A stretch of 16,604 bases of DNA, from assembly GCA_031264605.1 (NCBI GenBank), contig JAISDQ010000182.1, positions 1-16,604 on the forward strand, given 5' to 3'. The translations under genes and the position numbers were made by a program. The notes below the pieces were generated by a model. The model saw nothing but the letters and a program-made list of their open reading frames with translations. It did not search any database and had not been told where the DNA came from. This document shows positions 896 through 16,604 of this stretch, piece after piece (within the stretch, counting starts at the first letter, position 1; each line of letters starts with the position of its first letter). Source of the DNA: Synergistaceae bacterium. Lineage in GTDB: Bacteria > Synergistota > Synergistia > Synergistales > Synergistaceae.

Positions 896-910
896 GAGGG
901 GATAAAAGCG

Positions 911-1972: not shown

Positions 1973-2014
1973 ACGGATTTACACGCGTTTTGAGCGTATA
2001 TTGAGGAGAACATC

Positions 2015-3055
2015 ATGCTGGCTTGCGTATTCAAAAACGGAAAGTTTGAACTTGCCGAAAAACCTGTCCCGAAGGCCTCTTCCGACAGCGCGGTCGTAAA
2101 AATAAAGGCGACGTCCATATGTGGTACTGATTTCAGGACGTACGTCCACGGCAGCAAGAAGATACTCGAAGGCATAACCGTGGGGCACGAGCTTTGCGGC
2201 GAGATAGTCGAGATAGGAGAAAGCGTGGCCGGGTTTGCCAAAGGAGAAAGGGTTACGGTCGCGCCGGCGCTAGGCTGCGGGGAGTGCTACATGTGCAGAA
2301 AAGGGCACTCCAATATGTGCGACAATCTCAAGACTCTGGGGTATCATTTCGACGGTTCCTTCGCCGAGTACATGGAGATTCCGTCTCCGTTCTTCACGCG
2401 CGGACACGTCAATCATGTCGCGCCGTCGGTCGGCTCCGACCAGGCCGCGCTGGCGGAACCGGTGGCATGCGCCGTCAACGCGCAGGAGTTTTTGCGTATA
2501 GAAAAGGGCGACTACGTCGGAATTTTCGGTTCTGGATTCATCGGATGCAGTCACGCTGAACTTGCCGCGGCGCAGGGCGCTGAAAAGATCATAATGATAG
2601 AGCCCAACGCCGACAGGCTTGAGATTGCCAAACGGACGATCCCCGGAATATACGGGATCACCGGCGACGCCGACGTCGCGTCGTCCGTCAGGAAAATAAC
2701 GGATGGCAGGGGCGTTGACGTCGCCATCGTCGCTTGTTCCGTAGGCCCGGCTCAGACGGCCGCGATCGAGATCGCGGCAAAGCGGGGGAGAGTAAGCCTC
2801 TTCGGCGGACTTCCGGGCGAAGGCAGAGGATTTGTGGACAGCAATCTCATCCACTACAACGAACTCGGAATCTTCGGCGTACACGCTTCCACGCCGCAGC
2901 AAAACCGGCATGTCCTCGATTGGCTGGCCAGCGGCAAAATAGATACGGCGAAGTATATAGCGAAGAAATACCCTCTCGGAGATATCATGCAGGCTTTCGA
3001 CGACATAGCGAAAAAGGGCATCATGAAGGCCGTTATAGCCGACGAGGGCTATTAG
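2015..3055 (+). CDS. Zn-dependent alcohol/polyol dehydrogenase (MDR superfamily), second paralog
   Basis: Catalytic Zn ligands in SICGTD and VGHELCGE. Structural Zn site GCGECYMCRKGHSNMC. Rossmann motif IFGSGFIG. GAGGAG RBS before ATG 2015. Confidence 0.85.
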   Translation: MLACVFKNGKFELAEKPVPKASSDSAVVKIKATSICGTDFRTYVHGSKKILEGITVGHELCGEIVEIGESVAGFAKGERVTVAPALGCGECYMCRKGHSNMCDNLKTLGYHFDGSFAEYMEIPSPFFTRGHVNHVAPSVGSDQAALAEPVACAVNAQEFLRIEKGDYVGIFGSGFIGCSHAELAAAQGAEKIIMIEPNADRLEIAKRTIPGIYGITGDADVASSVRKITDGRGVDVAIVACSVGPAQTAAIEIAAKRGRVSLFGGLPGEGRGFVDSNLIHYNELGIFGVHASTPQQNRHVLDWLASGKIDTAKYIAKKYPLGDIMQAFDDIAKKGIMKAVIADEGY

Positions 3056-3106: not shown

Positions 3107-3748
3107 ATGGACGAGGGACGCGTCAAACTCGAGGTCGAGATCAGAAACGCTGTTTTAATGGCGATATATAAAAAAACCGGTGTGAGATATGTGCCGGTCG
3201 CTGTATCGAACAGGCACGCGCATCTCTCGCGCGCGGATATGGAAGTTTTGTTCGGAGCGGGCCGCAAACTGACGCCCATGAAATCTCTCTCGCAGCCGGG
3301 GCAGTACGCCGCGAAAGAGACTCTCTCGCTGACCGGCCCGAAAGGCAGAATAGACGGAATTCGAGTCCTCGGCCCCGAGAGGGGAAGTTCGCAGGTGGAG
3401 ATATCCGTCACGGATTCGTTCAGGCTTGGCATAACGCCGCTCATCCGCATGTCCGGCGATACGGCCGGCAGTCCAGGGGGACGTGTGGAGACGAAGCTCG
3501 GCTCGGTGGAGTTGAGCGAGGGCGTGATCGTCGCGGCAAGGCACATGCACATATCTTCCGCTCAGGCGCAAATCATGGGCCTCTCCGACGGCCAGGCGGT
3601 ATCTCTCAAGTCCGCCGGCGGACGCGGGGTCGTGTTCGACAATGTGGCCGTCAGGAGCGGAGAGGGTTTCGACCTGGAGGTTCACCTCGACACCGACGAG
3701 GCCAACGCGGCGCTTTTGAGGGACGGGGATCTCCTCGAAGTAGTGTGA
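3107..3748 (+). CDS. pduL: PduL/EutD-type phosphate acyltransferase (phosphotransacylase) with N-terminal amphipathic helix (putative encapsulation peptide)
   Basis: Both PduL repeat signatures are present: VPVAVSNRHAHLS and VIVAARHMHIS. Also QPGQYAAKETL, GPKGRIDGIRVLGPER and DTDEANAA. The first ~25 aa (VKLEVEIRNAVLMAIYKK) form an amphipathic helix before the catalytic domain starts. Confidence 0.85.
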   Translation: MDEGRVKLEVEIRNAVLMAIYKKTGVRYVPVAVSNRHAHLSRADMEVLFGAGRKLTPMKSLSQPGQYAAKETLSLTGPKGRIDGIRVLGPERGSSQVEISVTDSFRLGITPLIRMSGDTAGSPGGRVETKLGSVELSEGVIVAARHMHISSAQAQIMGLSDGQAVSLKSAGGRGVVFDNVAVRSGEGFDLEVHLDTDEANAALLRDGDLLEVV

Positions 3749-4452
3749 ATATGTCTGTGCTGGGTGGGATTTTGGATATCTCGGATGAAAGACAGAGGGG
3801 CTTGCTGATCGGCAGGATCGCTCAGGAGGTATTGTCCCGGCTGAGCGCCCTCGATGCGAAGGATGAAAATGTCTCGGGTACGGTGGTGCTGATGACCTCT
3901 CATATTCCGTCGCCCGCGAGCGCGATGTCAAAATTGAGGGAGAACTTCGGCGGCGAATTGTCCTTCATCGACTTCGGGGTGAAGATTCCGTTTGGTCTCC
4001 CGAATGTCATAGACGCCGGGAAAGAGTCGGAGGGAAGTCTGACGGAGACGGTGGCTTCGGCGGCCGGGGTTGTGCTCCTGGCGCCGAAGATAGGATTGCT
4101 CGACAGCATAGCGAAGGGCGACGACAGGGATTTCATCCCGTATCTCGTGATACGCAGCATGCTGTGGGGAAGAGATGTGAGCGTGCTGCTTGATTTCGAG
4201 CCGCCGCGTTTCAGAAGGAACACGTTTTTTGAGAAACTTGCCGATACGTTCGCGATCCTTCAGGACATGGGGGTCAGACTGCTGACTTATAAATGCGCGC
4301 AAAAGGGCGCCGAGGGTCTGTGCCTCGTCACGGAGGCCGACGTCACAGAAGCCTGGAGAAGCCGCAGGACCGAGATACGCCGGGCGCCGGGCGCTATAAT
4401 TACCCCGGCGGCGAAAGACAAGGCCGGAGAACTCGGGATCAGGCTCAATTGA
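3745..4452 (+). CDS. Hypothetical BMC-associated protein, unknown function; N-terminal amphipathic helix (possible encapsulation peptide). May start at ATG 3751.
   Basis: ORF fills the gap between pduL and the BMC-P gene and overlaps the pduL stop (GTGA). Codon usage matches its neighbours. N-terminal LLIGRIAQEVLSRLSAL helix. No recognisable catalytic motifs (no P-loop, no HxH). C-terminal IITPAAKDKAGELGIRL is vaguely reminiscent of PduM-type BMC structural proteins; this is from memory only and unverified. Confidence 0.5.
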   Translation: MNMSVLGGILDISDERQRGLLIGRIAQEVLSRLSALDAKDENVSGTVVLMTSHIPSPASAMSKLRENFGGELSFIDFGVKIPFGLPNVIDAGKESEGSLTETVASAAGVVLLAPKIGLLDSIAKGDDRDFIPYLVIRSMLWGRDVSVLLDFEPPRFRRNTFFEKLADTFAILQDMGVRLLTYKCAQKGAEGLCLVTEADVTEAWRSRRTEIRRAPGAIITPAAKDKAGELGIRLN

Positions 4453-4494: not shown

Positions 4495-4794
4495 ATGCAA
4501 TTATGCAGAGTTAAAGGCACAGTGGTTAGCACCAACAAGAGCGAAAAGCTGAACGGTTTGAAACTGCTGATCGTGAAACCCATTGACATCGAGACGTTCG
4601 AGGAAAAGGGCGGTATAGTCGTGGCGATCGACGCGGTGGGCGCCGGCGAGGGGGAGGTGGTGATGTGCGTCGGGGGGAGTTCTTCGCGCCAGACGGGCAT
4701 CACTGACGGAAAACCGGTGGATCAGTCCATCGTGGCCATCATTGATTCCGTGAATATGAACGGCAAGCGTATTTTTGAAAAATTCAAGGTATAA
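4495..4794 (+). CDS. BMC vertex (pentamer) protein, EutN/PduN/CcmL family (BMC-P), paralog 1
   Basis: MQLCRVKGTVVSTNKSEKLNGLKLLIV...VAIDAVGAGEGEVVMCVGGSSSR is a classic EutN/CcmL fold sequence of ~99 aa. GGAGAAG RBS. Confidence 0.85.
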   Translation: MQLCRVKGTVVSTNKSEKLNGLKLLIVKPIDIETFEEKGGIVVAIDAVGAGEGEVVMCVGGSSSRQTGITDGKPVDQSIVAIIDSVNMNGKRIFEKFKV

Positions 4795-4824: not shown

Positions 4825-6261
4825 ATGGCGCTAAGCGAGGCACAGATCAGACAGCTTGCAAATGACGCGATTCTGGAGGTAAATGGCGCGAAACCATCGG
4901 CGCCTTCGGGAAAACCGGCGTATTCCGTGTTGCCGCCGGCATCTGGGCAGTGGCTGTGCGACGACGCAAACGAAGCGATCGCGAACGCGAAGCGGTCACA
5001 GATGATACTCGCCAGGATGCCGTTGGAGCAGCGGGGCAGGATAATATCGGCAATGAGAGAAGCCGCCGTCAGGCACGCGGAGACGCTTGCCGAACTCGCT
5101 CACAATGAGACCGGTTACGGGAGGGTAGATCACAAGGTTTTGAAGAACCGCCTGGCCGCTGCAAACACGCCTGGCATAGAGGATCTCCGCCCGATGGCGT
5201 ACAGCGGAGACAACGGACTCACCATAGTGGAGGGAGCGCCGTTCGGGGTGATAGGTTCCATAACTCCTTCGACCAATCCTACATCCACGGTCATAAACAA
5301 CTCGATAAGCATGATAGCGGCCGGCAACTCCGTGGTGTACAATCCGCATCCGTCCGCGAAGAATTCTTCCACTGAGGCGATGCGCGTCCTGAATGAAGCG
5401 GCAGCGGCTGCCGGAGGTCCGCCCGCCCTCATGACCACGGTAAAGGTTCCGACTCTGCAGAGCGGAGCTGCCATCATGAGCCACAGGGACGTCAAATTAC
5501 TTTCCATCACGGGCGGCGAGGCCGTCGTCAGCGTGGCGATGAAATCGGGCAAGAAAGTGATCGCCGCCGGGCCCGGAAATCCGCCGGTTATCGTGGACGA
5601 TACCGCCTTCATACCGCAGGCCGCTAAAGATATAGTCGACGGTGCGAGCTTCGACAACAACGTGCTCTGTGTGGCCGAGAAGGAGGTGTTCGCCTTCGAG
5701 GGTATCGCGGGAGAGCTGGTGAGCCAGATGGTACACTGCGGGGCCCACAAAGTTTCCGGAACGGACATCGATAAAATAGTCAATACGGTGTTGGAGAAGC
5801 GCGACGGCAAGTACGTCATAAACAGAAATTTCGTAGGGCGCAGCGCGACCCATATACTCGAACAGAGCGGAGTCCCTTACGTCGGGGAGCCGAGGCTGGT
5901 CATAGCCGAAGTGGACAAGTACCATCCGTTTGTGACGACTGAAATGCTGATGCCGGTGCTTCCGGTCGTCCGCGTCGGCAACATAGACGAAGCCATCGAG
6001 GAAGCGCTTCGCGCGGAACAGGGATATCAGCATTCGGCCATGATTCACTCCACGAACATACGGAATATGTCCGCCGCGGCCTACGCGCTGAACACGACGA
6101 TATTCGTGAAGAATGCGCCGTCATACAGCGGATTGGGCTTCGGGGGGGAGGGCTACGCCACTCTTACGATAGCGACTCCGACCGGGGAGGGCCTGACGAG
6201 CGCGAAGTCCTTTACCCGTGCCAGGCGATGCGTATTGAAGGGCGATTTCAGAATCGTCTGA
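4825..6261 (+). CDS. CoA-acylating aldehyde dehydrogenase (PduP/EutE family) with N-terminal encapsulation peptide and Pro/Ser-rich linker
   Basis: ITPSTNPTST motif. Catalytic Cys in FDNNVLCVAEKE. AAGPGNPP motif. ~478 aa. N-terminus SEAQIRQLANDAILEV (amphipathic) followed by NGAKPSAPSGKPAYSVLPPASGQ linker. Confidence 0.9.
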   Translation: MALSEAQIRQLANDAILEVNGAKPSAPSGKPAYSVLPPASGQWLCDDANEAIANAKRSQMILARMPLEQRGRIISAMREAAVRHAETLAELAHNETGYGRVDHKVLKNRLAAANTPGIEDLRPMAYSGDNGLTIVEGAPFGVIGSITPSTNPTSTVINNSISMIAAGNSVVYNPHPSAKNSSTEAMRVLNEAAAAAGGPPALMTTVKVPTLQSGAAIMSHRDVKLLSITGGEAVVSVAMKSGKKVIAAGPGNPPVIVDDTAFIPQAAKDIVDGASFDNNVLCVAEKEVFAFEGIAGELVSQMVHCGAHKVSGTDIDKIVNTVLEKRDGKYVINRNFVGRSATHILEQSGVPYVGEPRLVIAEVDKYHPFVTTEMLMPVLPVVRVGNIDEAIEEALRAEQGYQHSAMIHSTNIRNMSAAAYALNTTIFVKNAPSYSGLGFGGEGYATLTIATPTGEGLTSAKSFTRARRCVLKGDFRIV

Positions 6262-6268
6262 TTCGATC

Positions 6269-7576
6269 ATGAACGTAGCGGAGATGATTCGCAGCGCCGG
6301 AGTGGTGGGAGCCGGAGGCGCGGGATTCCCGACCCACGTCAAGGTAAACGCGGCTTCGCCCGAGTGCGTCATAGCCAACGGAGCGGAGTGCGAGCCTTTA
6401 TTGCGGGTGGATCAGCAAGTCATGGAGTTCCACGCCGGTTCTGTCATTGAAGGGTTGCGTCTGGTCATGAGCCATACTGACGCGCGTCGTGGCGTCATCG
6501 CCCTGAAGGATCACTACGAGGGCGCGATAACGGCTCTCCGGCGTGAGTTGTCCGGCTCGGACGACATAGGGCTTCACGTCATGAGAAGCTACTATCCCGC
6601 CGGGGACGAACAGCAGCTAGTGTACGATATCTGCGGGCGGGTCGTTCCGACAGGCGGGATTCCTCTTGATGTGGGGGCGGTGGTATTGAACGTCAGCACG
6701 CTTATGCACGTGGACGAAGGGAGCCGGAACATCCCGGTGACGGATAAATATGTGACGGTCGGCGGAGCGGTTCGCAGGCCTGTTACGGTCAAGGCCCCGA
6801 TAGGCGCGCCGATGGACGTTTTACTCGACGCCGCCGGAGGGACGACGGAGAAATGCGGTTACATAATCGGAGGGCCCTGTATGGGCAGAGTTGTCTCAGA
6901 CCTGAGCTTCCCGGTCGTGAAAACTACCGGAGGGATCATAGCGATACCGGAGGGACATCCGCTCCTTCAAAAAAAGAGCGATCGCATGAGCGTGCAGCTT
7001 ATCAAAGCCGTGTGCTGTCAGTGTTCCTTATGCACCCAGATGTGCCCCAGAAACGCGCTTGGGCTTCGCGTCGAACCTCATAAGGCTATGCGCAGCCTGG
7101 CCCAGGGAGTCGACCTGCTAAATGGGGCGAATGGCCTTTTCTCCTGCTGTGACTGCGGGATATGCACATACTACGCCTGCAATTTCGGCCTGAAACCGTC
7201 CAAGGTCATGGGACTGCTGAAGGCTGAAATGCAGAAGGCGGGAGTCAAGCCCAGGAAGGAAGTTTACTCGGCGGCCGACAGGGGGCTCGGCATGAAGAAA
7301 CTGCCCACCGCAAGGCTCATACACAGGTTGGGCATAGGGAAGTACGATGTGGCGGCTCCCATGGAGGAGCGTCCGATTTATACGGCCGTCGTCAGGATAC
7401 CCCTCAAGATGCACATAGGCGCCCCATCCAAGCCGGTTGCCTCGGTCGGACAGCGCGTAAACAGGGGCGATCTGATTGCCGATATACCGGAGGGGGCATT
7501 GGGCGCGAAAGTACACGCGAGCATCGACGGGACGGTTACCGAAGTGACCGGCGAATATATGGAGATAAAGGTGTAG
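6269..7576 (+). CDS. pduS: PduS-like Fe-S flavoprotein (RnfC/NADH-dehydrogenase 51 kDa-like domain plus two 4Fe-4S ferredoxin motifs)
   Basis: N-terminus MIRSAGVVGAGGAGFPTHVK matches the PduS/RnfC signature. Two cluster motifs: CCQCSLCTQMCP and CCDCGICTYYAC. The stop is only 4 nt upstream of the PduT-like gene. Confidence 0.8.
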   Translation: MNVAEMIRSAGVVGAGGAGFPTHVKVNAASPECVIANGAECEPLLRVDQQVMEFHAGSVIEGLRLVMSHTDARRGVIALKDHYEGAITALRRELSGSDDIGLHVMRSYYPAGDEQQLVYDICGRVVPTGGIPLDVGAVVLNVSTLMHVDEGSRNIPVTDKYVTVGGAVRRPVTVKAPIGAPMDVLLDAAGGTTEKCGYIIGGPCMGRVVSDLSFPVVKTTGGIIAIPEGHPLLQKKSDRMSVQLIKAVCCQCSLCTQMCPRNALGLRVEPHKAMRSLAQGVDLLNGANGLFSCCDCGICTYYACNFGLKPSKVMGLLKAEMQKAGVKPRKEVYSAADRGLGMKKLPTARLIHRLGIGKYDVAAPMEERPIYTAVVRIPLKMHIGAPSKPVASVGQRVNRGDLIADIPEGALGAKVHASIDGTVTEVTGEYMEIKV

Positions 7577-7579: not shown

Positions 7580-8128
7580 ATGGGACAGGCGCTTGGAATG
7601 ATTGAACTCATAAGTGTTCCCGCTGGGATCGAGGCCGGCGACGCGATGCTGAAAGCCGCCGCCGTGGAATTGGTGACGGCGCAGGCGGCTTGCGCGGGCA
7701 AATACTTCGTCGCGGTCACCGGCGAGGTGGCCGCGGTGGAAGCGAGCGTCAAAGCCGGCAGGGAAGCCGCGTCCATGAAGCTGATCGACAGTCTCGTGAT
7801 ACCGAATATAGACGCGCAGGTACCCCTCGCCATCAACATGTGCAGCGATCCGGGGGAAATAGAGACGCTCGGGGCGATAGAGACGTTCTCTCTGTGCGCC
7901 GCGATAGTGGCGGCGGACTGCGCCGTGAAAGCCGCGCGGGTACGGCTCATAGAGATCAGGCTGGGCAGAGGGTTGGGCGGCAAGTCGTTCATAACTCTCA
8001 CCGGCGATGTGGCGGCGGTAAAAGCCGCGGTGAAAGCCGCCTCGGAAGTCGAAGAAGTCAGAGGCCTGATGGCGGAGAGCGTGGTAATACCTTCGCCGCA
8101 CCCCGATATGGTCAAGGCGGTATTTTGA
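7580..8128 (+). CDS. pduT: PduT-like tandem-domain shell protein (BMC-T) with conserved pore cysteine (Cys38) for a 4Fe-4S cluster
   Basis: 182 aa with two BMC domains. Aligns along its length to Salmonella PduT: MGQALGMIELISVPAGIEAGDAMLKAA, IDSLVIPNIDAQVPLAI and GAIETFSLCAAIVAADCAVKA...VIPSPHPDM. Cys at residue 38 (TGC 7691-7693) is at the position of the PduT cluster ligand. Confidence 0.8.
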   Translation: MGQALGMIELISVPAGIEAGDAMLKAAAVELVTAQAACAGKYFVAVTGEVAAVEASVKAGREAASMKLIDSLVIPNIDAQVPLAINMCSDPGEIETLGAIETFSLCAAIVAADCAVKAARVRLIEIRLGRGLGGKSFITLTGDVAAVKAAVKAASEVEEVRGLMAESVVIPSPHPDMVKAVF

Positions 8129-8169: not shown

Positions 8170-8481
8170 ATGTCCAAAGAAGCACTGGGAATGGTTGAGA
8201 CAAGAGGGCTGATAGGCGCGATCGAGGCGGCGGACGCTATGGTAAAGGCCGCCAACGTTTCCCTGATCGGCAAACAGCAGATCGGAAGCGGGCTGGTCAC
8301 TGTCATGGTGAGAGGTGACGTAGGGGCCGTGAAAGCCGCTGTCGACGCCGGAGCGGCGGCCGCCAAGAGGGTAGGCGAACTCTACGGCGTGCATGTCATC
8401 CCCAGCCCCCATGGGGACGTGGAAGGCATACTGCCGACGATTAACGCCGCTCCCCCGGCGCCGGCGAAGTCGAAAGCATAA
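8170..8481 (+). CDS. BMC hexamer shell protein (BMC-H, PduA/EutM-like), copy 1, with Ala/Pro-rich C-terminal tail
   Basis: [26 protein letters not shown]...[16 protein letters not shown] is the canonical Pfam00936 domain. Tail [24 protein letters not shown]. Confidence 0.9.
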
Positions 8482-8488
8482 ACGAGCC

Positions 8489-8755
8489 GTGTACGCGGGC
8501 GAGGTCGTCGGGTGCGTAGTAGCTACGGTTAAGGAACCCAACCTGGAGGGTATACCGCTCCTGGTGGTGAGGGTAATCGAAAACGGCAAGCCGGCCAATC
8601 TGGTGGTTGCCGCGGATTCGACCCGTCAGGCCGGCAGCGGCGACCATGTGTACATGATCGGCTCCAAGGAGGCCGCTCGCATGTTCCGTAAGAAGCTGAC
8701 TCCGGTGGATGTGGCGATTGTGGGTTTTATTGACGAATACAGGGAGGAACTTTGA
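8489..8755 (+). CDS. BMC vertex protein (EutN/PduN family, BMC-P), paralog 2; probable GTG start
   Basis: VYAGEVVGCVVATVKEPNLEGIPLLVVRVIENGKP...AADSTRQAGSGDHVYMIGSKEAARMF. The same frame stays open upstream to 8393, but that stretch overlaps the BMC-H tail in another frame and is Arg-rich junk. GTG at 8489 gives the canonical MxxAxVVGxVV start. Confidence 0.7.
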   Translation: MYAGEVVGCVVATVKEPNLEGIPLLVVRVIENGKPANLVVAADSTRQAGSGDHVYMIGSKEAARMFRKKLTPVDVAIVGFIDEYREEL

Positions 8756-8794: not shown

Positions 8795-9073
8795 ATGGAG
8801 AAATTGGCGCTTGGTATGGTAGAGACGAGGGGTTTGATAGGCGCGATCGAAGCGGCGGACGCCATGGTTAAGGCCGCTAACGTGACTCTGATTGGCAAGG
8901 AACAGATCGGCAGCGGTCTCGTGACCGCTATGGTGAGAGGCGACGTGGGCGCGGTAAAGGCGGCCGTCGACGCCGGAGCGGCGGCGGCGAAAAGAGTCGG
9001 CGAACTCTATGGCGTACACGTTATCCCAAGCCCGCACAACGACGTCGAGGGTATTCTGCCCGGCAAAAAATAG
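8795..9073 (+). CDS. BMC hexamer shell protein (BMC-H), copy 2 (near-identical protein to copy 1, diverged at synonymous sites)
   Basis: [97 protein letters not shown]. Confidence 0.9.
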
Positions 9074-9082
9074 GGGACGCCG

Positions 9083-9370
9083 GTGAGAATCGCCGCAGTC
9101 GTAGGAAACGTAGTTTCCACGATAAAGGACGAGTCATACCGCGGATACAAACTTATGATCATCGAATACCTGAACGAGGACGGAAAACCGTCCGGGGCGC
9201 GTCAGATAGCGTTTGACGCCGGACAGGCCGGCATAGGCGACGTAGTGCTCGTCAACGTGGACGGGGGAGCGGCGAACATGATGCTCGATAAAGACGTCAT
9301 CGCCGATCTCACAATTTGCGGCGTCCTGGACAGCTATACCTATGACGGGAAGACGAAGGTATTCTTCTGA
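9083..9370 (+). CDS. BMC vertex protein (EutN/PduN family, BMC-P), paralog 3; GTG start
   Basis: MRIAAVVGNVVSTIKDESYRGYKLMII...AFDAGQAGIGDVVLVNVDGGAANMM matches the EutN fold sequence. Confidence 0.8.
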   Translation: MRIAAVVGNVVSTIKDESYRGYKLMIIEYLNEDGKPSGARQIAFDAGQAGIGDVVLVNVDGGAANMMLDKDVIADLTICGVLDSYTYDGKTKVFF

Positions 9371-9383
9371 GGTGGTGGTTGAA

Positions 9384-10133
9384 ATGGATATTGAAAAGAT
9401 CGTGAGCGATGTGCTCAAGGAGGTTCAATCCGGGGGAACTGTTCACGGAAAACCCTCGCCGGGTTCGGTTCAGGCGTGGGAAGTTCCGTCGAAGCTGGAG
9501 CACTCGCTGCTGAACCCGGATGTCGGCCTCGGCAAGATATTGGCGGAGTGCGCCGTCGCGCGGCGGTATTGCGTAGCGGCGGTCTGTGTCGCGCCCTATT
9601 ATGTGTCCGCCGCCGCCGACGTCCTGAGAGGAAGCGGCGTAAAGGTCTGCGCCGCGATAGGTTTCCCGCACGGTTGCATGTCGGCGGCGTCAAAACTGGC
9701 CGAAGCGCGCGAGTGCGTCAAAAACGGCGCGGACGAAATCGACGTCGCGATGAACATTCTTGCGGTAAAATCGGGCAGGATCGCCGACGCAAGGGACGAT
9801 TTCGAACAGATAGCGGCCGCCTCGCGCGGAAAGACTACGCTCAAGGCGGTTTTCGAGCACAGCGTGTACTCCGACGAGGAGAAGCGCGCCGTGCTGGAAA
9901 TCGTGAAGACCTGCGGAGCCGAGTTCGTGAAGATACAAAACGTCCTGAGCGGCAAGGGCGCCGAAACCGAGGACATAAAATATGTGAGGAATATCCTGGG
10001 CCGTAACGTGAAAGTCAAGATCGACGGCGGCGTAAAGACGCTGGCGAAGGCGATGGAACTGTTGTCCGCGGGAGCGGATCGCATAGGACTCACAGCGACC
10101 GCGGCGATCGCGAAAGAGGCGGAGTGTAAATAA
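9384..10133 (+). CDS. Divergent DeoC-family class I aldolase (deoxyribose-phosphate aldolase-like) with N-terminal extension (putative encapsulation peptide)
   Basis: TIM-barrel DeoC architecture: AAVCVAPYYV, AAIGFPHG, EFVKIQNV (Schiff-base Lys retained) and KVKIDGGVKT (second Lys retained). The consensus TSTGF and phosphate-loop GTSSG are replaced by IQNVL and GLTAT. N-terminus MDIEKIVSDVLKEVQS plus a Gly/Pro/Ser linker. ATG 9384 with GAGGTGG RBS; the track's start at 9342 overlaps the upstream gene. Confidence 0.7.
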   Translation: MDIEKIVSDVLKEVQSGGTVHGKPSPGSVQAWEVPSKLEHSLLNPDVGLGKILAECAVARRYCVAAVCVAPYYVSAAADVLRGSGVKVCAAIGFPHGCMSAASKLAEARECVKNGADEIDVAMNILAVKSGRIADARDDFEQIAAASRGKTTLKAVFEHSVYSDEEKRAVLEIVKTCGAEFVKIQNVLSGKGAETEDIKYVRNILGRNVKVKIDGGVKTLAKAMELLSAGADRIGLTATAAIAKEAECK

Positions 10134-10164
10134 AAGGCCTTAATACGATTATTGGAGGAATAAG

Positions 10165-11001
10165 ATGAGCGCGATAGATATCAATGAAATTATCAGGCAG
10201 GTGACTGCCGAGATATGCGCCAACTACGGCGCGGCTTCTTCCGCGCCGGCTGATGAGTACAGTCCGGCGTCGCTGGCGAAGTACATCGACCATACGCTGC
10301 TTAAGCCCGACGCCAGCCTGAACGATATACGCAAGGTCTGTGACGAAGCAAAGAAGCATAACTTCGCTAGCGTGTGCGTGAACACCGGCTACATAAAATT
10401 CGTAGCCGACGCTCTGGAGGGCAGCGGAGTGGCGCCATGCTGCGTCGTCGGTTTCCCGCTGGGAGCCATGATGCCCGAGGCCAAAGCGGCCGAGGCGCTG
10501 TGCGCCGTCAACAGCGGCGCTAAAGAGGTCGACATGGTCATAAACGTCGGAGCGGTGAAATCATCCGACTGGAAATTGGTCCACAGCGACATAGAGGGCG
10601 TCGTGACGGCGGCTCGCGGAAGAGCCATAGTGAAGGTGATAATAGAGACATGCCTCCTCACCGACGAGGAAAAGGTGAAGGCATGCGCGATCAGCAAACT
10701 CGCGGGGGCTCATTTCGTGAAAACGTCCACCGGATTTTCGACCGGCGGAGCGACGGTGGAAGACGTGCGTCTGATGCGCCGGACAATAGGTCCCGATATG
10801 GGACTCAAGGCATCCGGAGGAGTGAGGACGTACGAGGACGCGGTCAACATGCTGAAGGCCGGAGCCACCAGGCTGGGAACCAGTTCAGGAACGAAGATCG
10901 TATCGGGCGACGGCGCGGCGGAGCACAAATGCGTGAACTGCGGAGCGTGCAAAGTCGTGTGCCCGAGCGGCAGGGCCACGGTCATAAAAGGCCTGTACTG
11001 A
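10165..11001 (+). CDS. deoC: Deoxyribose-phosphate aldolase (DeoC) with N-terminal encapsulation-peptide-like extension and C-terminal CxxCxxCxxxCP 4Fe-4S ferredoxin-type motif
   Basis: Canonical DERA motifs: YIDHTLLKPDA, VCVNTGY, VVGFPLGA, HFVKTSTGFSTGGAT, GLKASGGVRT and RLGTSSG. N-terminus MSAIDINEIIRQVTAEI plus an Ala/Ser/Pro linker. C-terminal tail KCVNCGACKVVCP (nt 10930-10965). Confidence 0.85.
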   Translation: MSAIDINEIIRQVTAEICANYGAASSAPADEYSPASLAKYIDHTLLKPDASLNDIRKVCDEAKKHNFASVCVNTGYIKFVADALEGSGVAPCCVVGFPLGAMMPEAKAAEALCAVNSGAKEVDMVINVGAVKSSDWKLVHSDIEGVVTAARGRAIVKVIIETCLLTDEEKVKACAISKLAGAHFVKTSTGFSTGGATVEDVRLMRRTIGPDMGLKASGGVRTYEDAVNMLKAGATRLGTSSGTKIVSGDGAAEHKCVNCGACKVVCPSGRATVIKGLY

Positions 11002-11023
11002 CCTGGGTATCTTTTAAAAATAT

Positions 11024-11779
11024 ATGAGAAAACCGATTATCGCCGGTAACTGGAAGATGAACATGACGCCGTCACAGACGGTGAAGCTGATCGAGGAGAT
11101 CAAGCCTCTCGTCGCGGAGGCGAGATGTGAGATCGTCGTCTGTCCGACCCATACGTGCCTCTTTGCGGCTAAAGAGGCCCTTAAAGGGACGGACAGAATA
11201 TCCCTCGGCGCTCAGGACATGTTTTACGAGGAGAGGGGCGCTTTCACCGGCGAGGTCTCCTGCGAATCGCTGCTCGAACTCGGCGTCAGATACGTGATCA
11301 TCGGACATTCGGAGCGCCGCCAATACTTCGCCGAGTCCGACGAGACGGTCAGCAAAAAAGTCACGAAGGCCCTGGAAAAACGCCTGATTCCGATTGTCTG
11401 CGTGGGCGAGTCGCTCACGCAGAAACAGCGGGGAGTTACGAACGAAACCGTGGGGTTGCAGACGCGTCTCGCGCTTTTCGGCGTCGGCGCCGGAAACGCG
11501 GAGGACGTCGTGATAGCGTACGAACCGATCTGGGCAATCGGAACAGGCATGACGGCCACCAGCGCGGAGGCGAACGGCACGATACGCCGTATAAGAGGCG
11601 TCCTCGCCGAGATGTACAATCCGGAAACCTCGCGGAAAGTCCGCATTCTTTACGGGGGCAGCATGAACGCCGGAAACGCAGGGGAATTGCTTTCAACGAG
11701 CGACATAGACGGAGGACTGATAGGCGGCGCGAGCCTGAAGAGCGGCGATTTCGCGCAAATCGTGGGCAACTTGAGCTGA
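11024..11779 (+). CDS. tpiA: Triosephosphate isomerase
   Basis: IIAGNWKMN, catalytic His in IIGHSERR, AYEPIWAIGTG (catalytic Glu) and YGGSMN. No N-terminal extension. Confidence 0.9.
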   Translation: MRKPIIAGNWKMNMTPSQTVKLIEEIKPLVAEARCEIVVCPTHTCLFAAKEALKGTDRISLGAQDMFYEERGAFTGEVSCESLLELGVRYVIIGHSERRQYFAESDETVSKKVTKALEKRLIPIVCVGESLTQKQRGVTNETVGLQTRLALFGVGAGNAEDVVIAYEPIWAIGTGMTATSAEANGTIRRIRGVLAEMYNPETSRKVRILYGGSMNAGNAGELLSTSDIDGGLIGGASLKSGDFAQIVGNLS

Positions 11780-11797
11780 TATTGACAATGGTTCAGG

Positions 11798-11831
11798 GGA
11801 GTCCGACGATAGCCGGCTCCTTTATTTTTTT
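11798..11831 (+). terminator. Putative rho-independent terminator of the BMC operon
   Basis: GGAG(T)CCG / CGGCTCC stem with one bulge and an 8-nt loop, followed by TTTATTTTTTT. Sits 19 nt after the tpiA stop. Confidence 0.5.
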
Positions 11832-11865
11832 GTGTGTGATTCGGAATGATAAAGCAGGAGAATCA

Positions 11866-11917
11866 CGCAAAGTGACATACCCCCCTGATTCAGCGAATGG
11901 GAGAATGTCACTTTGCG
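11866..11917. repeat. 13-bp perfect inverted repeat (CGCAAAGTGACAT / ATGTCACTTTGCG) with 26-nt spacer, each arm preceded by a GGAGAAT direct repeat
   Basis: Seen directly: 11866-11878 pairs with 11905-11917. GGAGAAT occurs at 11857-11863 and 11900-11906. Lies between convergent tpiA and the minus-strand oxidoreductase gene. Confidence 0.4.
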
Positions 11918-11928
11918 CAGAATTCAAG

Positions 11929-13125
11929 CTAATAGACAACCTCTATTTTCTTGCCGCACTTGGATGATTCGGCAAGGGTCTCCAGAATGACCGCTGCTCT
12001 GTAGCCGTCCTCGAACGTAGCGCATAACGGGCCAACTTCTTTGTCGTTTGCCACACAGTCGAGAAAATGAGCGATCAGATTGATGTGACCGTGTTCCCAG
12101 CCGCAATTATGGCCTGCGGGCCACCATATCTTCATGAACGGATGATTGGGCAGCGTGCAGGAAATTCTTGTAAAGCCGGCAATTTCGGGAACAGGCGCTT
12201 CTCTGAGCTGCACATTGAGATAAGTAGGATCCTCGAGGCTCCATGTAATAGTTCCTTTTGTTCCGTAGATCTCCCAATAAAGATGGTTATACCTGCCGGA
12301 TGCGACTGACATGTTTTCAATGGTTCCGGTAGCGCCGTTGTTAAAGTCAATGAGAGCCCGAATGCTGTCATCATAAGGCACATCGACCATAGCGCCGTTT
12401 TTGCGGGCGGAGGGTCTCTGTTTCGGGATAGAACGCATATCGCCCGTTATCGAAGCAACTTCGCCAACGAGGAATCGAGCCTGGTCAATAAGGTGCGTTC
12501 CCAACCCCTGGGAGTTGCCTGTCATGTTTTGATACCAGACGTTTTCAACAGGGAGATCGAGAGGAAGGGCATATTCCTGATGATATCTTCCGTAAAAGTG
12601 AAGTATGTCGCCGACCGCCCCTTTGTTGATAAGCTCGTACGCAAGCCTGACAGCGCCTTGAAAACGATAGTTAAAACACAGAGCGTTCTTGACGTTTGCC
12701 TTATTGACCGCGTCCAGCATTTTTTTTGACGCTTCTCTGCCCAAGGCCATCGGTTTTTCGCATATGATATGTTTGCCGGCTTCGGCAGCGTCAATACAAG
12801 GCTGCATGTGAAGACTGTCCACACAGACATTGTCAAATACAGAAACGTCAGGATCCGCGATAAGATCTTTCCAGCCGCCATAATGGTTCTTGAAGCCGTA
12901 CCTGTCAGCGGCAGCCTTGGCATTTTCCACGGTGGAAGCGCTAATTGCGATCAGTTCCGGCACATAGTTTGTTTCAAACATATAGCTGATCGTCTTGTAC
13001 GCATTGGAATGAGCCTTGCCCATGAAGCCCCTGCCAAAAAGACCGATTCCGATTTTTTTTCTGGGCTGTGAGAAATCGCCGACACTGTAACCTATACCTA
13101 TGTTTTTTACTTCGCTCATAATCAC
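11929..13125 (-). CDS. Gfo/Idh/MocA-family NAD(P)-dependent oxidoreductase
   Basis: N-terminal Rossmann motif IGIGLFGRGFMGKAHSNAY and the family hallmark EKPMAL. ~398 aa. AGGTG RBS before ATG. Confidence 0.8.
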   Translation of the reverse strand: MIMSEVKNIGIGYSVGDFSQPRKKIGIGLFGRGFMGKAHSNAYKTISYMFETNYVPELIAISASTVENAKAAADRYGFKNHYGGWKDLIADPDVSVFDNVCVDSLHMQPCIDAAEAGKHIICEKPMALGREASKKMLDAVNKANVKNALCFNYRFQGAVRLAYELINKGAVGDILHFYGRYHQEYALPLDLPVENVWYQNMTGNSQGLGTHLIDQARFLVGEVASITGDMRSIPKQRPSARKNGAMVDVPYDDSIRALIDFNNGATGTIENMSVASGRYNHLYWEIYGTKGTITWSLEDPTYLNVQLREAPVPEIAGFTRISCTLPNHPFMKIWWPAGHNCGWEHGHINLIAHFLDCVANDKEVGPLCATFEDGYRAAVILETLAESSKCGKKIEVVY

Positions 13126-13248
13126 CGCACCTTTTTTCTTTGCGTCTTCCTACCCTCTTTTAATACTATTTCCCATAGTACACCCTTATCCGCCGCTCCG
13201 GCTATTTCACGGAATATTTCACAAAGACCTTACCTGGCATGTCTCGCC

Positions 13249-14025
13249 TCACTCATCCCTCCCGGCGTATATGACGGTTGCGTAGCTTGTGCCGGATTCT
13301 ACGCGGCGGCCCAGAATATCCGACGAGTCCGTGTGTTCCATGACGACGCCCTTTACCGCGCCGAGTTCGCTGAACAGACGGAGGACAAGCGACGCGGCTC
13401 TCCGCGCGTCGATATCCAAGCGGCCGGTTTGCATCGGTTCCAGGGCCGTCAGGACTTCGAGAGTCAGTTCGTCCTCCTGGCGCATCGCTTCAGGGGTTTT
13501 GTAATGCGACAGATCCATGCTCAAAATGATCATGTCGCTTTCCAGCGCCGCTTCGAGCATGTATTTTTTCAGCATCAGGAGAGCGATATCGGGTATGTTC
13601 GGTTTCAGCACCATAGGGACGACCGTCGCGTTGGGGAAATACCGCGCGATGAACGGAATGTGGATGGTGATTCCGTGTTCTTCCGCGAAAAGACGCGGAT
13701 TTGACGTGACCACGCTCAAGCCGGAGAAACCGCTTTTCGCGTCGTCGTCGGCTTTAACTGTCCATCCCGCCGTTTGCCAATCATCGCCGCATACCTCGGC
13801 GTAATTTCTTGCCCGTTTGAAATGGTCGGGCGACAGCAGCCACACGCGTCTGACCTTATCCGAGGAAACGCGTTCATAAAACCGCGATATCATGTCCAGC
13901 GCGAGACCGTGGTGCGGCACGATTCCCCCGAGTATCCGCGCTCCGGCGTCCGCGTTCGCTGACGCCGAAAGCGCAAAAAACATGCCGCAGAAAACGGCGA
14001 CAAACAGGCGTTTCTTTGCCGTCAT
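13249..14025 (-). CDS. MEMO1 / AmmeMemoRadiSam-system protein B family protein with N-terminal signal peptide (exported)
   Basis: GGIVPHHGLALD and LSMDLSHY resemble the MEMO1 His/Asp-containing motifs. N-terminus MTAKKRLFVAVFCGMFFALSASANA is a typical Sec signal peptide with an AxA cleavage site. Its start codon overlaps the stop of the upstream gene (ATGA). Confidence 0.65.
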   Translation of the reverse strand: MTAKKRLFVAVFCGMFFALSASANADAGARILGGIVPHHGLALDMISRFYERVSSDKVRRVWLLSPDHFKRARNYAEVCGDDWQTAGWTVKADDDAKSGFSGLSVVTSNPRLFAEEHGITIHIPFIARYFPNATVVPMVLKPNIPDIALLMLKKYMLEAALESDMIILSMDLSHYKTPEAMRQEDELTLEVLTALEPMQTGRLDIDARRAASLVLRLFSELGAVKGVVMEHTDSSDILGRRVESGTSYATVIYAGRDE

Positions 14026-16604
14026 CGCGTGTTTTCCTTAAATTCTCTATACCAGTCGGGGCAGAGCCGTTCCAATTCATTTTCGCGGCCCGGGTCGTAT
14101 ACTATGGCCTTCCATTCCTCGTCCGTCATACGCTCGGACACGGAGCGCTCGAACTCGTAATACGAAAAAACGTAGCCTTTTGTGACGCGGGCCCCGCCGG
14201 ATTTGTCGTTCGCGAATACGTAAATCGCCCGCGGTGTCCCGGAAGCCGCTTCCAGAACCGTCATATCCCAACCGTTCGTCGCCGTATCCGCCACGCACGC
14301 CATCTTCCTCAGCTCTCCGTCGTCCGTCAGCATGCCGTATCCGGGAAGAAGAAGGAATCTGTCGAAAGCGCGCGCTGTCTCCTTGATCGAAGCGTATTCG
14401 CCTGGGGATAGCGTCTCTTTGGTAACTTCCTTCCTCGCGATATCCCTCATAGATTCGAGCATCGCCGAAAATTTTCCGAGTCTGTCGGAATATTTCGTCT
14501 CGCCGTCGCCATCGTTGTCCTCCACGCCGAAGCCTTCTATGAAAGCCCTCAAATTGTCCGTCGCGCCGAGCATCGCTGAGAAGAACTGCGGATCGGGCTC
14601 CACGTAGCCTCTCGGTCGCGGAGGCTCGAATCCGCCGGCATACCAGTTGTCGCCGCCCTCGCCCATCTCCGCCATGCTCTGCTCGGCGTACAAAATGGTG
14701 TCGTGTTTTAGTTCGGCCCATGAAGCCAGATTCGTCGCCAGTTTCTTCCATCGCCACCCCTCGGTTCCGTAAAAAAACTGCTCCGATCCCGAGTCTTTGA
14801 AACCGGCCAGAAACGTTTCGAGCCAGCTAGCGTAGACGGTGTTCTCCCCGGCGAGATATCCGGCGGCTTCGTCTTTCAGTTCCGCAAGGCTGGCTTCGTA
14901 GTTTTCAATGTCGTAATCGTTTTTCGAGAGAGCGTCCGCGGCGGACGACCCGAATACCGCCATGACGTCCGTTCCCTTCGGCATGTTCCGCGGGTTTTCA
15001 TCGGTTCCGACGCTGGGCGACGTAAGCCGGTTCATTATGTAAGCGTCATAGGTGAAGCGTTTGGGCGAGATTCTGAAAACCGCGCTTCTGGATTCGAAAT
15101 CAGCCCCTGCCGCGTCAATCCCCGCGACGCTCCGAATCTTCGGCCCCGAAACGTTTTCCGCGATATCCTCCGCGAGACGGGCAATCACGGCTTCGTCGCC
15201 GAGGAGCGCCCAGGCATCCTGTCCGCCGTCTCCCAAGCGTTTCCGCACGATCCCGCGATAAATTTTCGGGTCTCCGGCGTTGGGAACGCCTATCAGCAAA
15301 GTCATCGCGTCCTCGAACGTCTCCCAGTTTCCCCTCTGCGCGTCCATCGCGAGAGCGATTGCCGCGGCGGCCGCGACGTTGTGCGCGATCGGTTTTCCGT
15401 CCATGCCGAACATCGGCAGTTCGGCGAGCCCGACGTAACTCATCGCGCGAAAGTAGCGTTCGTACTCGGGGGAGATCGTGTAGTGTCCGCGCGGTTTGAA
15501 CAGCGTGTAGTCGATTTTCTGTCCGGTTATACCCGAAACTTCCATTTCGGAGGCCGCCATGATTTTTTCGGTTTCCGCGGCCGCTCGCGGCGATAGTTTT
15601 TCGCCCGCCGGATTTTCCGACAACAGCGCTTGTGCGACCGACAACATATCATGGGCTGTGTCGAAAGACCGCCGCGCGGCGTCCCCGCCGTCCGAGCGCT
15701 TTCGCGCCGCATCCACCAGGCCGATCGCCCCGTTCAAATTCTCCGCGAGCTGGGGCGCGAGGTATGTGCGCTCGAATTTTTGCAGCATCTGGTCGAATAT
15801 GAGATGGAACGAATGGAGAAAAATATCCGCCGTGATGAAATCCGCCTCGTACTCTCCCGTAAGCGAGTAAAGATCGGCCATATCGTCGACACGGACGCCG
15901 TATTCATCAGGCAAAAGAGCCTTGTCGTCTATGAGAAACCCACGTTTTTCGAGCGAATCGGCGAATCGTTCCGGCAGATTTTCGATATTTTCCGCGCCGC
16001 CCGGCTCGGCGCGCAATCTTCGCGACGAGGGTATGAGGGCGCGGTCGGCTTTCGAGTTGTCCGGTTCGTACGAGTCCAGCACGATGAAATCTTCCCCGCG
16101 TCCCCACGCGAAACGGCGGCCTACGCCGGATTCTCCGTCAACCGTGCCGAAGGACATGAGCACATATCCGTCGCGTTTCCCGTACGAGGGAACGATTTCT
16201 CCTTTAAGCAGCGAAAAATCACGCCCCGGCAGATCGCTTTTGCCGCCGCCGGGCATCAGTGAAAGTTCCGGCCCGTCGCGGAGGGCCATATAGAGCGCGC
16301 CGCGGGTTGGTTCGCAATCCGGAAACGGCTCTACGCCGTCCTCGGGAATATAGCCCAGCACGCTGCCGTCATCCGGAGATATGAGCGCGAACCAGCCGCA
16401 TTCGGGACGCAACGTCAGTTTGTTGCCGTAGACGACGACGCCTTCTATATCGTCGCCGTATTCGATCCCGCCGTCGCCGGTTTTGGCGTATTCGCCGCCC
16501 GGCGAGTTCATGATCGGCAGTATTTCCGCGACGACGGTATATTCTCCCTCGCCCGCCGCCTCGCGGGAAGCCGCGCGCGCCTCTCCGTCAAACGCCAGAA
16601 GCAG
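14022..16604 (-). CDS. Large conserved hypothetical protein (>860 aa; possibly DUF3160-like), N-terminus beyond window
   Basis: Continuous minus-strand frame with no stop from 16604 down to 14022, so the ATG at 16511 in the track is probably internal. Codon usage matches a genuine CDS. Acidic and Gly-rich, with no catalytic motif recognisable by eye. Translationally coupled to the MEMO-like gene. Confidence 0.5.
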   Translation of the reverse strand: MLLAFDGEARAASREAAGEGEYTVVAEILPIMNSPGGEYAKTGDGGIEYGDDIEGVVVYGNKLTLRPECGWFALISPDDGSVLGYIPEDGVEPFPDCEPTRGALYMALRDGPELSLMPGGGKSDLPGRDFSLLKGEIVPSYGKRDGYVLMSFGTVDGESGVGRRFAWGRGEDFIVLDSYEPDNSKADRALIPSSRRLRAEPGGAENIENLPERFADSLEKRGFLIDDKALLPDEYGVRVDDMADLYSLTGEYEADFITADIFLHSFHLIFDQMLQKFERTYLAPQLAENLNGAIGLVDAARKRSDGGDAARRSFDTAHDMLSVAQALLSENPAGEKLSPRAAAETEKIMAASEMEVSGITGQKIDYTLFKPRGHYTISPEYERYFRAMSYVGLAELPMFGMDGKPIAHNVAAAAAIALAMDAQRGNWETFEDAMTLLIGVPNAGDPKIYRGIVRKRLGDGGQDAWALLGDEAVIARLAEDIAENVSGPKIRSVAGIDAAGADFESRSAVFRISPKRFTYDAYIMNRLTSPSVGTDENPRNMPKGTDVMAVFGSSAADALSKNDYDIENYEASLAELKDEAAGYLAGENTVYASWLETFLAGFKDSGSEQFFYGTEGWRWKKLATNLASWAELKHDTILYAEQSMAEMGEGGDNWYAGGFEPPRPRGYVEPDPQFFSAMLGATDNLRAFIEGFGVEDNDGDGETKYSDRLGKFSAMLESMRDIARKEVTKETLSPGEYASIKETARAFDRFLLLPGYGMLTDDGELRKMACVADTATNGWDMTVLEAASGTPRAIYVFANDKSGGARVTKGYVFSYYEFERSVSERMTDEEWKAIVYDPGRENELERLCPDWYREFKENTR

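Follow-up and report, generated by a model that had tools for sequence, protein, structure and literature searches.

Contig JAISDQ010000182.1 of a Synergistaceae bacterium (assembly GCA_031264605.1), analysed over its whole stretch of 16,604 nt and referred to here as the window, carries one tightly packed operon on the plus strand, which runs from a regulator gene through a triosephosphate isomerase (TIM) gene and includes shell and core genes of a bacterial microcompartment. The open reading frames (ORFs) were annotated with Pfam and NCBIfam models. Two of the core genes belong to the DeoC or deoxyribose-phosphate aldolase (DERA) family, and we concentrate on the divergent one of the pair, named DeoCdiv in the following. 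The original prediction had described it as a second, divergent DeoC paralogue; two DeoC copies are indeed present, but the divergent one lies upstream of the canonical copy and not after it. The features of DeoCdiv and its canonical partner are:

9369-9375, plus strand: Shine-Dalgarno-like GAGGTGG, separated by 8 nt from the ATG at 9384, in overlap with the stop codon of the preceding BMC-P gene
9384-10133, plus strand: DeoCdiv, divergent DeoC/DERA-fold paralogue, 249 aa (ORF with ribosome binding site; TIGR00126, PF01791)
9387-9431, plus strand: N-terminal amphipathic helix, aa 2-16, encapsulation-peptide-like (helix at residues 3-16 in the AlphaFold2 model)
9432-9473, plus strand: Gly/Pro/Ser-rich linker, aa 17-30, poorly conserved (low column conservation)
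9498-9518, plus strand: beta-1 motif EHSLLNP (canonical DHTLLKP), with E39, S41 and N44 at E. coli D16, T18 and N21
9741-9743, plus strand: D120, equivalent to the catalytic D102 of E. coli, present in 80 of 80 family members
9924-9947, plus strand: beta-6 motif FVKIQNVL (E. coli FIKTSTGK) with the Schiff-base lysine K183, equivalent to E. coli K167
10017-10031, plus strand: beta-7 motif KIDGG (E. coli KPAGG), with K212 at E. coli K201 and I213-D214 at P202-A203
10086-10100, plus strand: beta-8 loop GLTAT in place of the phosphate-binding G-(A/T)-S-S-G
10165-11001, plus strand: canonical DERA partner, 278 aa (TIGR00126, 278.6 bits)

An alternative ATG of DeoCdiv at 9342 was rejected, as it falls within the preceding BMC-P gene and a good ribosome binding site precedes the ATG at 9384. 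The intergenic gaps around the gene measure 13 nt on the 5' side and 31 nt on the 3' side, and a promoter and terminator consensus scan of positions 9000-12100 gave counts at chance level, with no sign of separate transcription of the paralogues.

The AlphaFold2 model of DeoCdiv, built on 34 family members, reached a mean predicted local distance difference test score (pLDDT) of 90.9. A Foldseek search with this model found the Bacillus halodurans DERA 6D33 as the nearest solved structure (TM-score 0.92, root mean square deviation 1.4 A), followed by the DERAs of Thermotoga maritima (0.83) and E. coli (0.79), and as modelled the protein is a DERA-type TIM barrel. Residues 35-243 also align with solved DERAs in HMMER, again with 6D33 as best match (E = 1e-40), and the protein is recognized by PF01791 (E = 1.4e-6) as well as by TIGR00126, where it scores 165.3 bits against a cutoff of 117.3. 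It is considerably more distant from the solved enzymes than its neighbour, with 34-38% identity compared to 57-59%, and the two paralogues share 36% identity over 247 residues (BLASTP). NCBI and JGI records name DeoCdiv a deoxyribose-phosphate aldolase. With the Gram-positive or Thermotoga-type DERAs (EC 4.1.2.4; BH1352, 6D33; T. maritima, 3R12) it has in common the TIM barrel, 37% identity to 6D33, the Asp/Lys/Lys triad, the equivalents of K137, E141 and C47 and the beta-7 GG, whereas about 30 extra N-terminal residues and 19 differences among 32 pocket positions set it apart.

The motifs were aligned with HMMER against solved DERAs, with MAFFT against the E. coli enzyme (verified against 1JCL) and with BLASTP against the neighbouring paralogue. 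Both catalytic lysines, recognized earlier by eye, are retained in the HMMER and MAFFT alignments at K183 and K212. Together with D120 the complete triad is kept, and no essential catalytic residue is missing, the loss of which is the canonical mark of a pseudoenzyme. The canonical pocket motifs, in contrast, are absent: DeoCdiv reads K-I-Q-N-V for K-T-S-T-G and G-L-T-A for G-(A/T)-S-S. The exchange of TSTGF for IQNVL after the Schiff-base lysine was reproduced by the formal alignments, and MAFFT places I184-Q185-N186-V187-L188 at E. coli T168-S169-T170-G171-K172; the final F to L step is present but only mild, as the closest Gram-positive-type DERAs have Phe or Tyr there and not Lys. Equally reproducible is the change from GTSSG to GLTAT, with RIGLTAT aligned to RFGASS of E. 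coli and RLGTSSG of the neighbour and L236-T237-A238 standing at A237-S238-S239. In beta-7, D214 takes the place of Ala or Ser (KASGG in the neighbour), so that a new Asp (position 203) is found next to the relay lysine K212. Little weight falls on the reported change from LLKP to LLNP: the Asn is present in EHSLLNP, but N21 is also the state of E. coli DERA, and we rejected this position as a diagnostic change. A structure-based comparison with the E. coli and Thermotoga enzymes did not restore the consensus motifs.

The canonical partner, on the other hand, has all of them (DHTLLKP, FVKTSTGF, KASGGVR, RLGTSSG). Among the paired partners of related loci each KTSTG position is conserved in at least 73 of 78 sequences, and both KTSTG and G-x-S-S are invariant in the four solved DERAs that were aligned. 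As a side observation, the window partner carries a Cys-rich C-terminal tail (10930-10965, aa 256-267; terminal Tyr at 10996-10998), H-K-C-V-N-C-G-A-C-K-V-V-C-P-S-G...Y, which corresponds to a single ferredoxin-type C-x2-C-x2-C-x3-C-P motif and is matched weakly by several Fer4 Pfam models. The tail motif occurs in 65 of 78 partner DERAs of related loci and the C-terminal Tyr in 76 of 78. DERAs do not usually carry a tail of the Fe-S type, and the 2024 SPU paper (PMC11585597) makes no mention of one; it could link the canonical DERA to the PduS/BMC-T redox pair encoded in the same operon.

A sequence search over 5.8 billion proteins (E <= 1e-10) yielded 691 matches to DeoCdiv, and the best 120 of these were aligned; all are about 250 aa long and 52-100% identical to DeoCdiv. 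A set of 80 related loci was drawn from one-genome-per-species contigs. The family signature consists of E-H-S near beta-1, K-I-[QS]-N-[MVA]-L after beta-6, K-I-D-G-G in beta-7 and G-[LCM]-[TS]-A-[TS] in beta-8, and E39, H40, S41, D120, K154, E158, K183, N186, K212, I213, D214, G215 and G216 vary little or not at all in the 120 homologues and the 80 loci. Because the divergent motifs are themselves near-invariant across both sets, they do not reflect chance or sequencing noise. In the loci, K183 and N186 were found in 80 of 80 members and I184 in 77, while position 185 is Q in 63 cases and S in 17. All five residues of KIDGG are each present in 80 of 80 aligned members (contiguous in all ORFs but one), and the beta-8 loop shows G in 80, L in 70, T in 65 or S in 15, and A in 79. 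The hosts belong to Synergistaceae, Christensenella/Christensenellaceae, Oscillospiraceae/Faecousia, Pseudoflavonifractor and Treponema. Cultured representatives are Christensenella hongkongensis HKU16 and Faecousia intestinalis CLA-AA-H192, next to metagenome-assembled genomes (MAGs) from rumen and gut and MAGs of Synergistaceae and Treponema. Throughout this survey the family was seen solely within microcompartment operons.

A profile search against 1.84 billion cluster representatives revealed a sharp switch to the canonical KTSTG/KASGG motifs below about 220 bits. Non-canonical representatives account for 29 of the best 150 profile matches, mostly above this switch, and several of them are fragments. 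In neighbour-joining trees, the only tree method used and one in which deep nodes were modestly supported, the lysine-retaining divergent sequences exclude every canonical DERA in 94 of 100 bootstraps. Many of the next-best matches to the divergent profile (P0258-P0300) are proteins of 420-516 aa with a canonical DERA domain at the C-terminus. Their approximately 250 N-terminal residues gave no Pfam match, and no homology was detected between this half and a 235-aa window protein described below (BLASTP E = 5.9); they may represent the flavoprotein-DERA or RPI-DERA fusions (RPI, ribose-5-phosphate isomerase) described for other SPU or archaeal compartments.

For a closer look at the substrate pocket, we used the 32 positions that line the active and phosphate site of E. 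coli DERA, transferred by alignment, and determined column entropies on non-redundant sets. In the divergent family (45 sequences) the entropy was 0.47 in the pocket and 1.40 in the rest of the barrel (p = 1.5e-8), compared to 0.39 and 1.04 in the canonical partners (32 sequences, p = 4.2e-6). The divergent pocket is under strong purifying selection, about as tight as that on the canonical DERA pocket. The consensus of the two groups nevertheless differs at 19 of the 32 positions. In E. coli numbering these changes include D16E, T18S, T168I, S169Q, T170N, G171 to M/V/A and A/S203D, and in comparison with the Gram-positive type also T237L (E. coli has Ala at 237), S238T (T/S) and S239A as well as T142H; position 21 is N/D in place of the canonical Lys. 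According to the strand assignment of the AlphaFold2 model the pocket changes are concentrated where strands beta-1, 5, 6, 7 and 8 have their C-terminal ends.

The phosphate group in DERA is bound by Lys172, Ser238 and Gly205 and by the backbones of Gly171, Val206, Gly236 and Ser239 (PMC8403123). Engineered variants of this site (S238D, S239E/D, G171A/S, G204A, N21K/S) favour non-phosphorylated aldehydes, with retro-aldol activity on deoxyribose 5-phosphate (dR5P) lowered or lost and acetaldehyde self-aldol activity gained, and T18S alters stereoselectivity (PMC8403123). The DeoCdiv family is changed at the same positions 171, 238, 239, 21, 18 and 203. The natural residues differ from the engineered ones (M/V, T, A, N/D, S and D, respectively), and I184, Q185, N186, H159 and E39 near the Schiff-base lysine are without engineered counterpart. 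Because the natural changes fall on phosphate-site positions linked to activity by mutagenesis, we infer that DeoCdiv is unlikely to prefer dR5P as its ligand; a carbonyl compound that is smaller or carries no phosphate would be the likelier choice.

Terminal amphipathic helices are an accepted hallmark of microcompartment cargo. The helix of DeoCdiv has a hydrophobic moment of 0.67 for DIEKIVSDVLKEVQ, and across the family hydrophobic residues are kept at I3, I6, V10 and V14 and acidic ones at D2, E4 and E9. The pLDDT of the linker that follows is below 50 at residues 16-25 and 51-56 for the blocks within residues 11-30. Judged by the model, the N-terminus of DeoCdiv looks like an encapsulation peptide, with the combination of terminal amphipathic helix and poorly conserved linker expected of encapsulated cargo. 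The canonical partner has a similar N-terminal helix (DINEIIRQVTAEI), and the two helices align in BLASTP. In the SPU literature encapsulation helices have been predicted for DERA, RPI, aldehyde dehydrogenase (AldDH) and phosphotransacylase (PTAC).

The remaining genes of the window operon, in their order, are the following (Pfam/NCBIfam assignments except where stated):

29-862, plus strand: SorC/DeoR-type sugar-binding regulator
875-1972, plus strand: first Zn-dependent polyol-type dehydrogenase
2015-3055, plus strand: second Zn-dependent polyol-type dehydrogenase
3107-3748, plus strand: PduL
3745-4452, plus strand: unannotated protein of 235 aa (no Pfam/NCBIfam match)
4495-4794, plus strand: first BMC-P
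4825-6261, plus strand: acylating AldDH
6269-7576, plus strand: PduS/RnfC-like flavoprotein
7580-8128, plus strand: BMC-T
8170-8481, plus strand: first BMC-H
8489-8755, plus strand: second BMC-P
8795-9073, plus strand: second BMC-H
9083-9370, plus strand: third BMC-P
11024-11779, plus strand: TIM, last gene of the operon (PF00121, E = 4e-89; TIGR00419)

When the window proteins were compared with the ORFs found in the 80 loci, 79 of these could be scored for the gene directly before the DeoCdiv homologue: it is the last BMC-P gene in 72 of them and a BMC-H gene in 7. The upstream module is conserved in the order PduL, unannotated protein, BMC-P, AldDH, (PduS, BMC-T), BMC-H, BMC-P, BMC-H, BMC-P, both in the 80 related loci and in loci L081, L083, L084 and L086. 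A canonical DERA was present in 75 of the 80 loci, the remaining contigs being short or truncated. Regarding its position, the canonical gene usually stands immediately downstream of the divergent copy and is followed by TIM; in Christensenella a regulator and two dehydrogenases separate the two DeoC genes, while in Treponema and Limiplasma the canonical copy is located upstream of PduL. In three Treponema loci (L063 2606-4263, L065 2325-3985 and L069 984-2735) two DeoC genes of canonical type lie upstream of PduL, and only one of them encodes the Cys-rich tail; with the divergent copy this makes three DeoC paralogues per operon. The cassette of regulator and two Zn-dehydrogenases (window 29-3055; L081 10759-13850) moves as a unit and is found upstream of the module in Synergistaceae and between the two DeoC genes in Christensenellaceae; the Oscillospiraceae loci lack it. 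According to the Pfam contexts, flanking catabolic and transport genes vary by lineage, for example a TRAP transporter with an RraA-like protein, an ABC transporter with FGGY kinase and class II aldolase, DeoR with an Fe-dependent alcohol dehydrogenase, or MFS transporters. Because these flanks differ between lineages, the constant unit is the shell-plus-core module with its two DeoC genes, and horizontal transfer combined with lineage-specific feeder pathways is suggested by a core module that is almost the same in three phyla.

Some further observations concern other genes of the window. The mechanically called ORF of the second BMC-P (8393-8755) runs 89 nt into the preceding BMC-H gene; because its Pfam match begins at residue 36 and homologues measure 88 aa, the true start is probably the GTG at 8489. 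The 235-aa protein between PduL and the first BMC-P has an amphipathic helix near its N-terminus, at aa 21-34. Most related loci that extend far enough upstream keep it; in the Treponema loci it was not detected. It is probably the 'eut_hyp-type' (TIGR02536-like) protein of SPU4, for which an N-terminal encapsulation peptide is described. Three genes on the minus strand (11929-16511) converge on the operon and encode a GFO/IDH/MocA oxidoreductase, whose best NCBIfam similarity, to levoglucosan dehydrogenase, falls below the cutoff, a Memo/AmmeMemoRadiSam-B-like protein and an 829-aa DUF3160 protein. This trio is not conserved beside the module in the other contexts examined, and the oxidoreductase alone occurs in 2 of 80 loci (L022, L075).

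SPU4 loci were described by Sutter et al. (2021, PMC8217296) as containing AldDH, PTAC, a pfam01791 aldolase, a pfam00121 isomerase, a BMC-P triplet, two BMC-H genes and optionally PduS with one or more BMC-T genes. The window matches this gene list in full, including PduS and BMC-T. The signature enzyme DERA of SPU-type loci is characterized by an encapsulation-peptide-like extension and by catalytic residues that DeoCdiv likewise has (PMC11585597); the published description fits the neighbour at 10165-11001, and DeoCdiv is an additional paralogue. Within the searchable text and supplements, we found no mention of a second or divergent DERA in PMC11585597 or in the catalogues of 2014 and 2021, and a keyword literature search for one in microcompartment loci found nothing. 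SPU compartments and their DERA are already known. The literature searched does not describe the divergent family, nor that it has a canonical DERA as fixed partner, is associated with loci lacking RPI and includes the lysine-less offshoots treated below.

A second conserved cargo protein of SPU compartments is the RpiB-like RPI (pfam02502, Cys66 to Asp), a catalytically inactive protein that binds DERA in a 1:1 complex and has been proposed as a packaging factor (PMC11585597). It resembles DeoCdiv in being a second conserved cargo gene with an encapsulation peptide and an enigmatic enzymatic role, and its gene is reported adjacent to DERA and, in SPU1, to two BMC-P genes. The fold, however, is unrelated, and the catalytic Cys is lost in all SPU loci, in contrast to the catalytic residues kept in the clade of DeoCdiv. 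With a verified E. coli RpiB query we found no tblastn match below E = 1 in 1.19 Mb comprising 86 loci and the window, and pfam02502 was also absent from the Pfam lists of the window-related contexts examined. RPI has been reported in just 18 of 29 SPU4 loci (Dwyer, Sutter and Kerfeld 2024, PMC11585597). A query with the 235-aa protein for RPI-containing SPU4 loci recovered 125 proteins, all of them close relatives from lineages already represented.

Relatives without the Schiff-base lysine were found as well, in 8 of the 29 non-canonical representatives, where the residues at this position are T, S, E, S, G, Y, V and V. Their match to the pocket consensus (0.28-0.53) is no better than that of the rest of the barrel, compared to 0.62-0.88 for the lysine-retaining outliers; the pocket of the lysine-less lineages has decayed to background. 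At least 99 of 100 bootstraps place four of these sequences within the clade that retains the lysine, and the eight never form fewer than three groups. We dropped a claim of monophyly for the whole family and restrict ourselves to this better supported nesting and to the exclusion of canonical DERAs reported above. For the basal intermediates P0254 and P0256 the contigs (1.1-1.4 kb) are too short to be informative on gene context.

The lysine-less genes keep the slot after the shell genes in L087, L088, L089 and L090. P0376 and P0308 belong to complete modules without any DERA, where the DeoC-like proteins are encoded at 10001-10732 (L087) and 10001-10768 (L088); these two loci carry instead a PF01116 class II aldolase of the fructose-bisphosphate/tagatose-bisphosphate type, a Zn-dependent alcohol dehydrogenase, a 2-hydroxyacid dehydrogenase and a GntR regulator, and may constitute a distinct, undescribed locus type derived from an SPU4-like one. 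P0267 is located at the operon end (L089) and P0252 beside a canonical-length DeoC (L090). In the P0376 group, with 13 members of 45-80% identity, the lysine is missing in 13 of 13, and the helix M-D/E-L-D/E-A-L-I-A-Q-I-T-E-E-V is visibly among the best conserved stretches. Since such genes have long been kept without the nucleophile, the lysine-less members must be under selection for something other than aldol chemistry.

The original prediction had offered two readings of the altered motifs, a different substrate or a non-catalytic scaffold, and each captures part of what we found. A different substrate agrees with a pocket that is rebuilt at 19 positions, tightly held and changed where mutagenesis affects phosphate binding, but a phosphorylated substrate may still be compatible with it; a scaffold agrees with the fixed slot, the helix, the missing RpiB and the lysine-less relatives, but the triad and pocket are intact in the window clade. 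We give an even chance to a combination of the two, read from the sequences and contexts described here, in which DeoCdiv would belong, as an accessory protein, to the core of an SPU4-like compartment that lacks RPI, with a structural role common to the family and a retargeted pocket in the window clade. The family would then descend from a DERA duplicate that was recruited to organise or recruit cargo inside the shell, in the position that the inactive RpiB-like protein holds in other SPU compartments. The structural role is extended to the whole family because nested lineages lost the Schiff-base lysine and the pocket and kept helix, barrel and slot, and the intact triad with the tightly held, rebuilt pocket of the window clade points to a second function, the binding or conversion of a ligand other than dR5P. 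In DeoCdiv bulky or apolar residues would occupy the phosphate site (G171 to V/M, A237 to L, S239 to A, with the canonical Lys at position 21 changed to Asn/Asp) and the new polar residues E39, H159, Q185, N186 and D214 would surround the Schiff-base lysine, leaving a pocket that is presumably still functional yet unfit for dR5P. Candidate ligands of such a pocket would be small, probably non-phosphorylated carbonyl compounds such as acetaldehyde, aldol products of the 3-hydroxybutanal type or free 2-deoxyribose. The canonical neighbour, the obvious dR5P aldolase of the locus, would cleave dR5P; the acetaldehyde would then pass to AldDH and PduL, and TIM would receive the glyceraldehyde 3-phosphate.

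Several points weigh against this combined role. Catalysis alone would account for the near-invariance of triad and pocket in the window clade, and a structural role leaves the pocket conservation in need of a second explanation. The phosphate site is partly kept (beta-7 GG, beta-8 Gly, hydroxyl of T/S237), and as the phosphate is held largely by backbone amides, a phosphorylated substrate may still fit. DeoCdiv lies above the TIGR00126 cutoff, which is of the 'equivalog' type. Only 38 of 100 neighbour-joining bootstraps recovered the family as monophyletic once its long-branch lysine-less sequences were counted in, and the evidence for mutual exclusion of RPI and the paralogue comes from paralogue-bearing loci. 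Activity, partners and encapsulation are, for every family member, predictions from sequence and models.

If DeoCdiv were purely a second enzyme, it would be a class I aldolase with a new substrate (free 2-deoxyribose, another deoxy-sugar or acetaldehyde-derived aldols) that acts in series or in parallel with the canonical DERA and has no structural role, the lysine-less forms being later degenerations. The triad in 80 of 80 loci, a pocket as constrained as in canonical DERA and substitutions at positions that control phosphate binding and stereochemistry all fit this, as do the two lysine-less contexts that swapped DERA for a PF01116 aldolase, showing a change of pathway. Catalysis only, however, hardly explains nested lysine-less lineages that keep helix and slot at 45-80% identity, one of them still beside a canonical DERA (L090), and among the lineage-variable flanking catabolic genes no conserved pathway for an extra substrate is visible. 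We hold a purely enzymatic role to be unlikely, if worth serious attention. The opposite case, a scaffold or adaptor that is non-catalytic in this organism too, recruits DERA or other cargo to the shell and retains triad and pocket for folding or for partner or ligand binding, appears improbable to us. It would account for the fixed slot by the BMC-P genes, the helix, the absence of RPI, the lysine-less relatives and a barrel that evolves faster than that of the partner. Its precedents (PMC11585597) are the inactive SPU RPI, the inactive AldDH copy with encapsulation peptide of GRM1 loci and the gamma-carbonic anhydrase domain of CcmM. The latter two resemble the present case as cargo-enzyme paralogues kept with targeting features, and several lineages of the DeoCdiv family have lost the catalytic lysine; in the window clade, by contrast, the active site is intact and strongly constrained. 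The pocket there is three times less variable than the barrel, catalytic residues are constant in 80 loci at 45-100% identity, and the decay of the pocket in true lysine-less lineages argues that a structural role alone does not keep it. Least credible, and in our judgement very improbable, is an ordinary redundant DERA isozyme that diverged by drift. Its score above the TIGR00126 cutoff, the names in NCBI and JGI and the conserved triad and fold would agree with such an isozyme, but the near-invariant KTSTG and G-x-S-S are all replaced by residues that are themselves nearly invariant, drift would not yield a pocket entropy of 0.47, and engineered changes at the same positions strongly cut activity on dR5P.

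The accessory core role can be carried one step further, to a proposal that we consider doubtful and put forward tentatively: the family would form an unrecognised class of metabolosome core organisers derived from the signature enzyme itself. Its members would hetero-oligomerise with DERA or dock on the BMC-P/BMC-H layer via barrel and helix, nucleate the core and replace the RpiB-like protein, and the active site may be free to stay as a ligand sensor or aldehyde buffer, as in the window clade, or to be lost, as in the lysine-less lineages. If true, such an organiser would give heterotrophic compartments an equivalent of CcmM or CsoS2.

Few bacterial microcompartments are as widespread as those of the SPU type. 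The accessory role favoured here for DeoCdiv bears on how SPU cargo is organised and on why a catalytically silent RpiB-like protein accompanies DERA. DeoCdiv marks an SPU4-like sub-type with a remodelled DERA copy in an accessory position, and annotation of both genes as deoxyribose-phosphate aldolase overstates what is known of the divergent one. Its naturally rebuilt pocket is altered at positions that DERA engineers target for non-phosphorylated aldehydes, and the pocket-constrained and lysine-less members of the family together represent a natural experiment that separates the catalytic from the structural roles of cargo paralogues.

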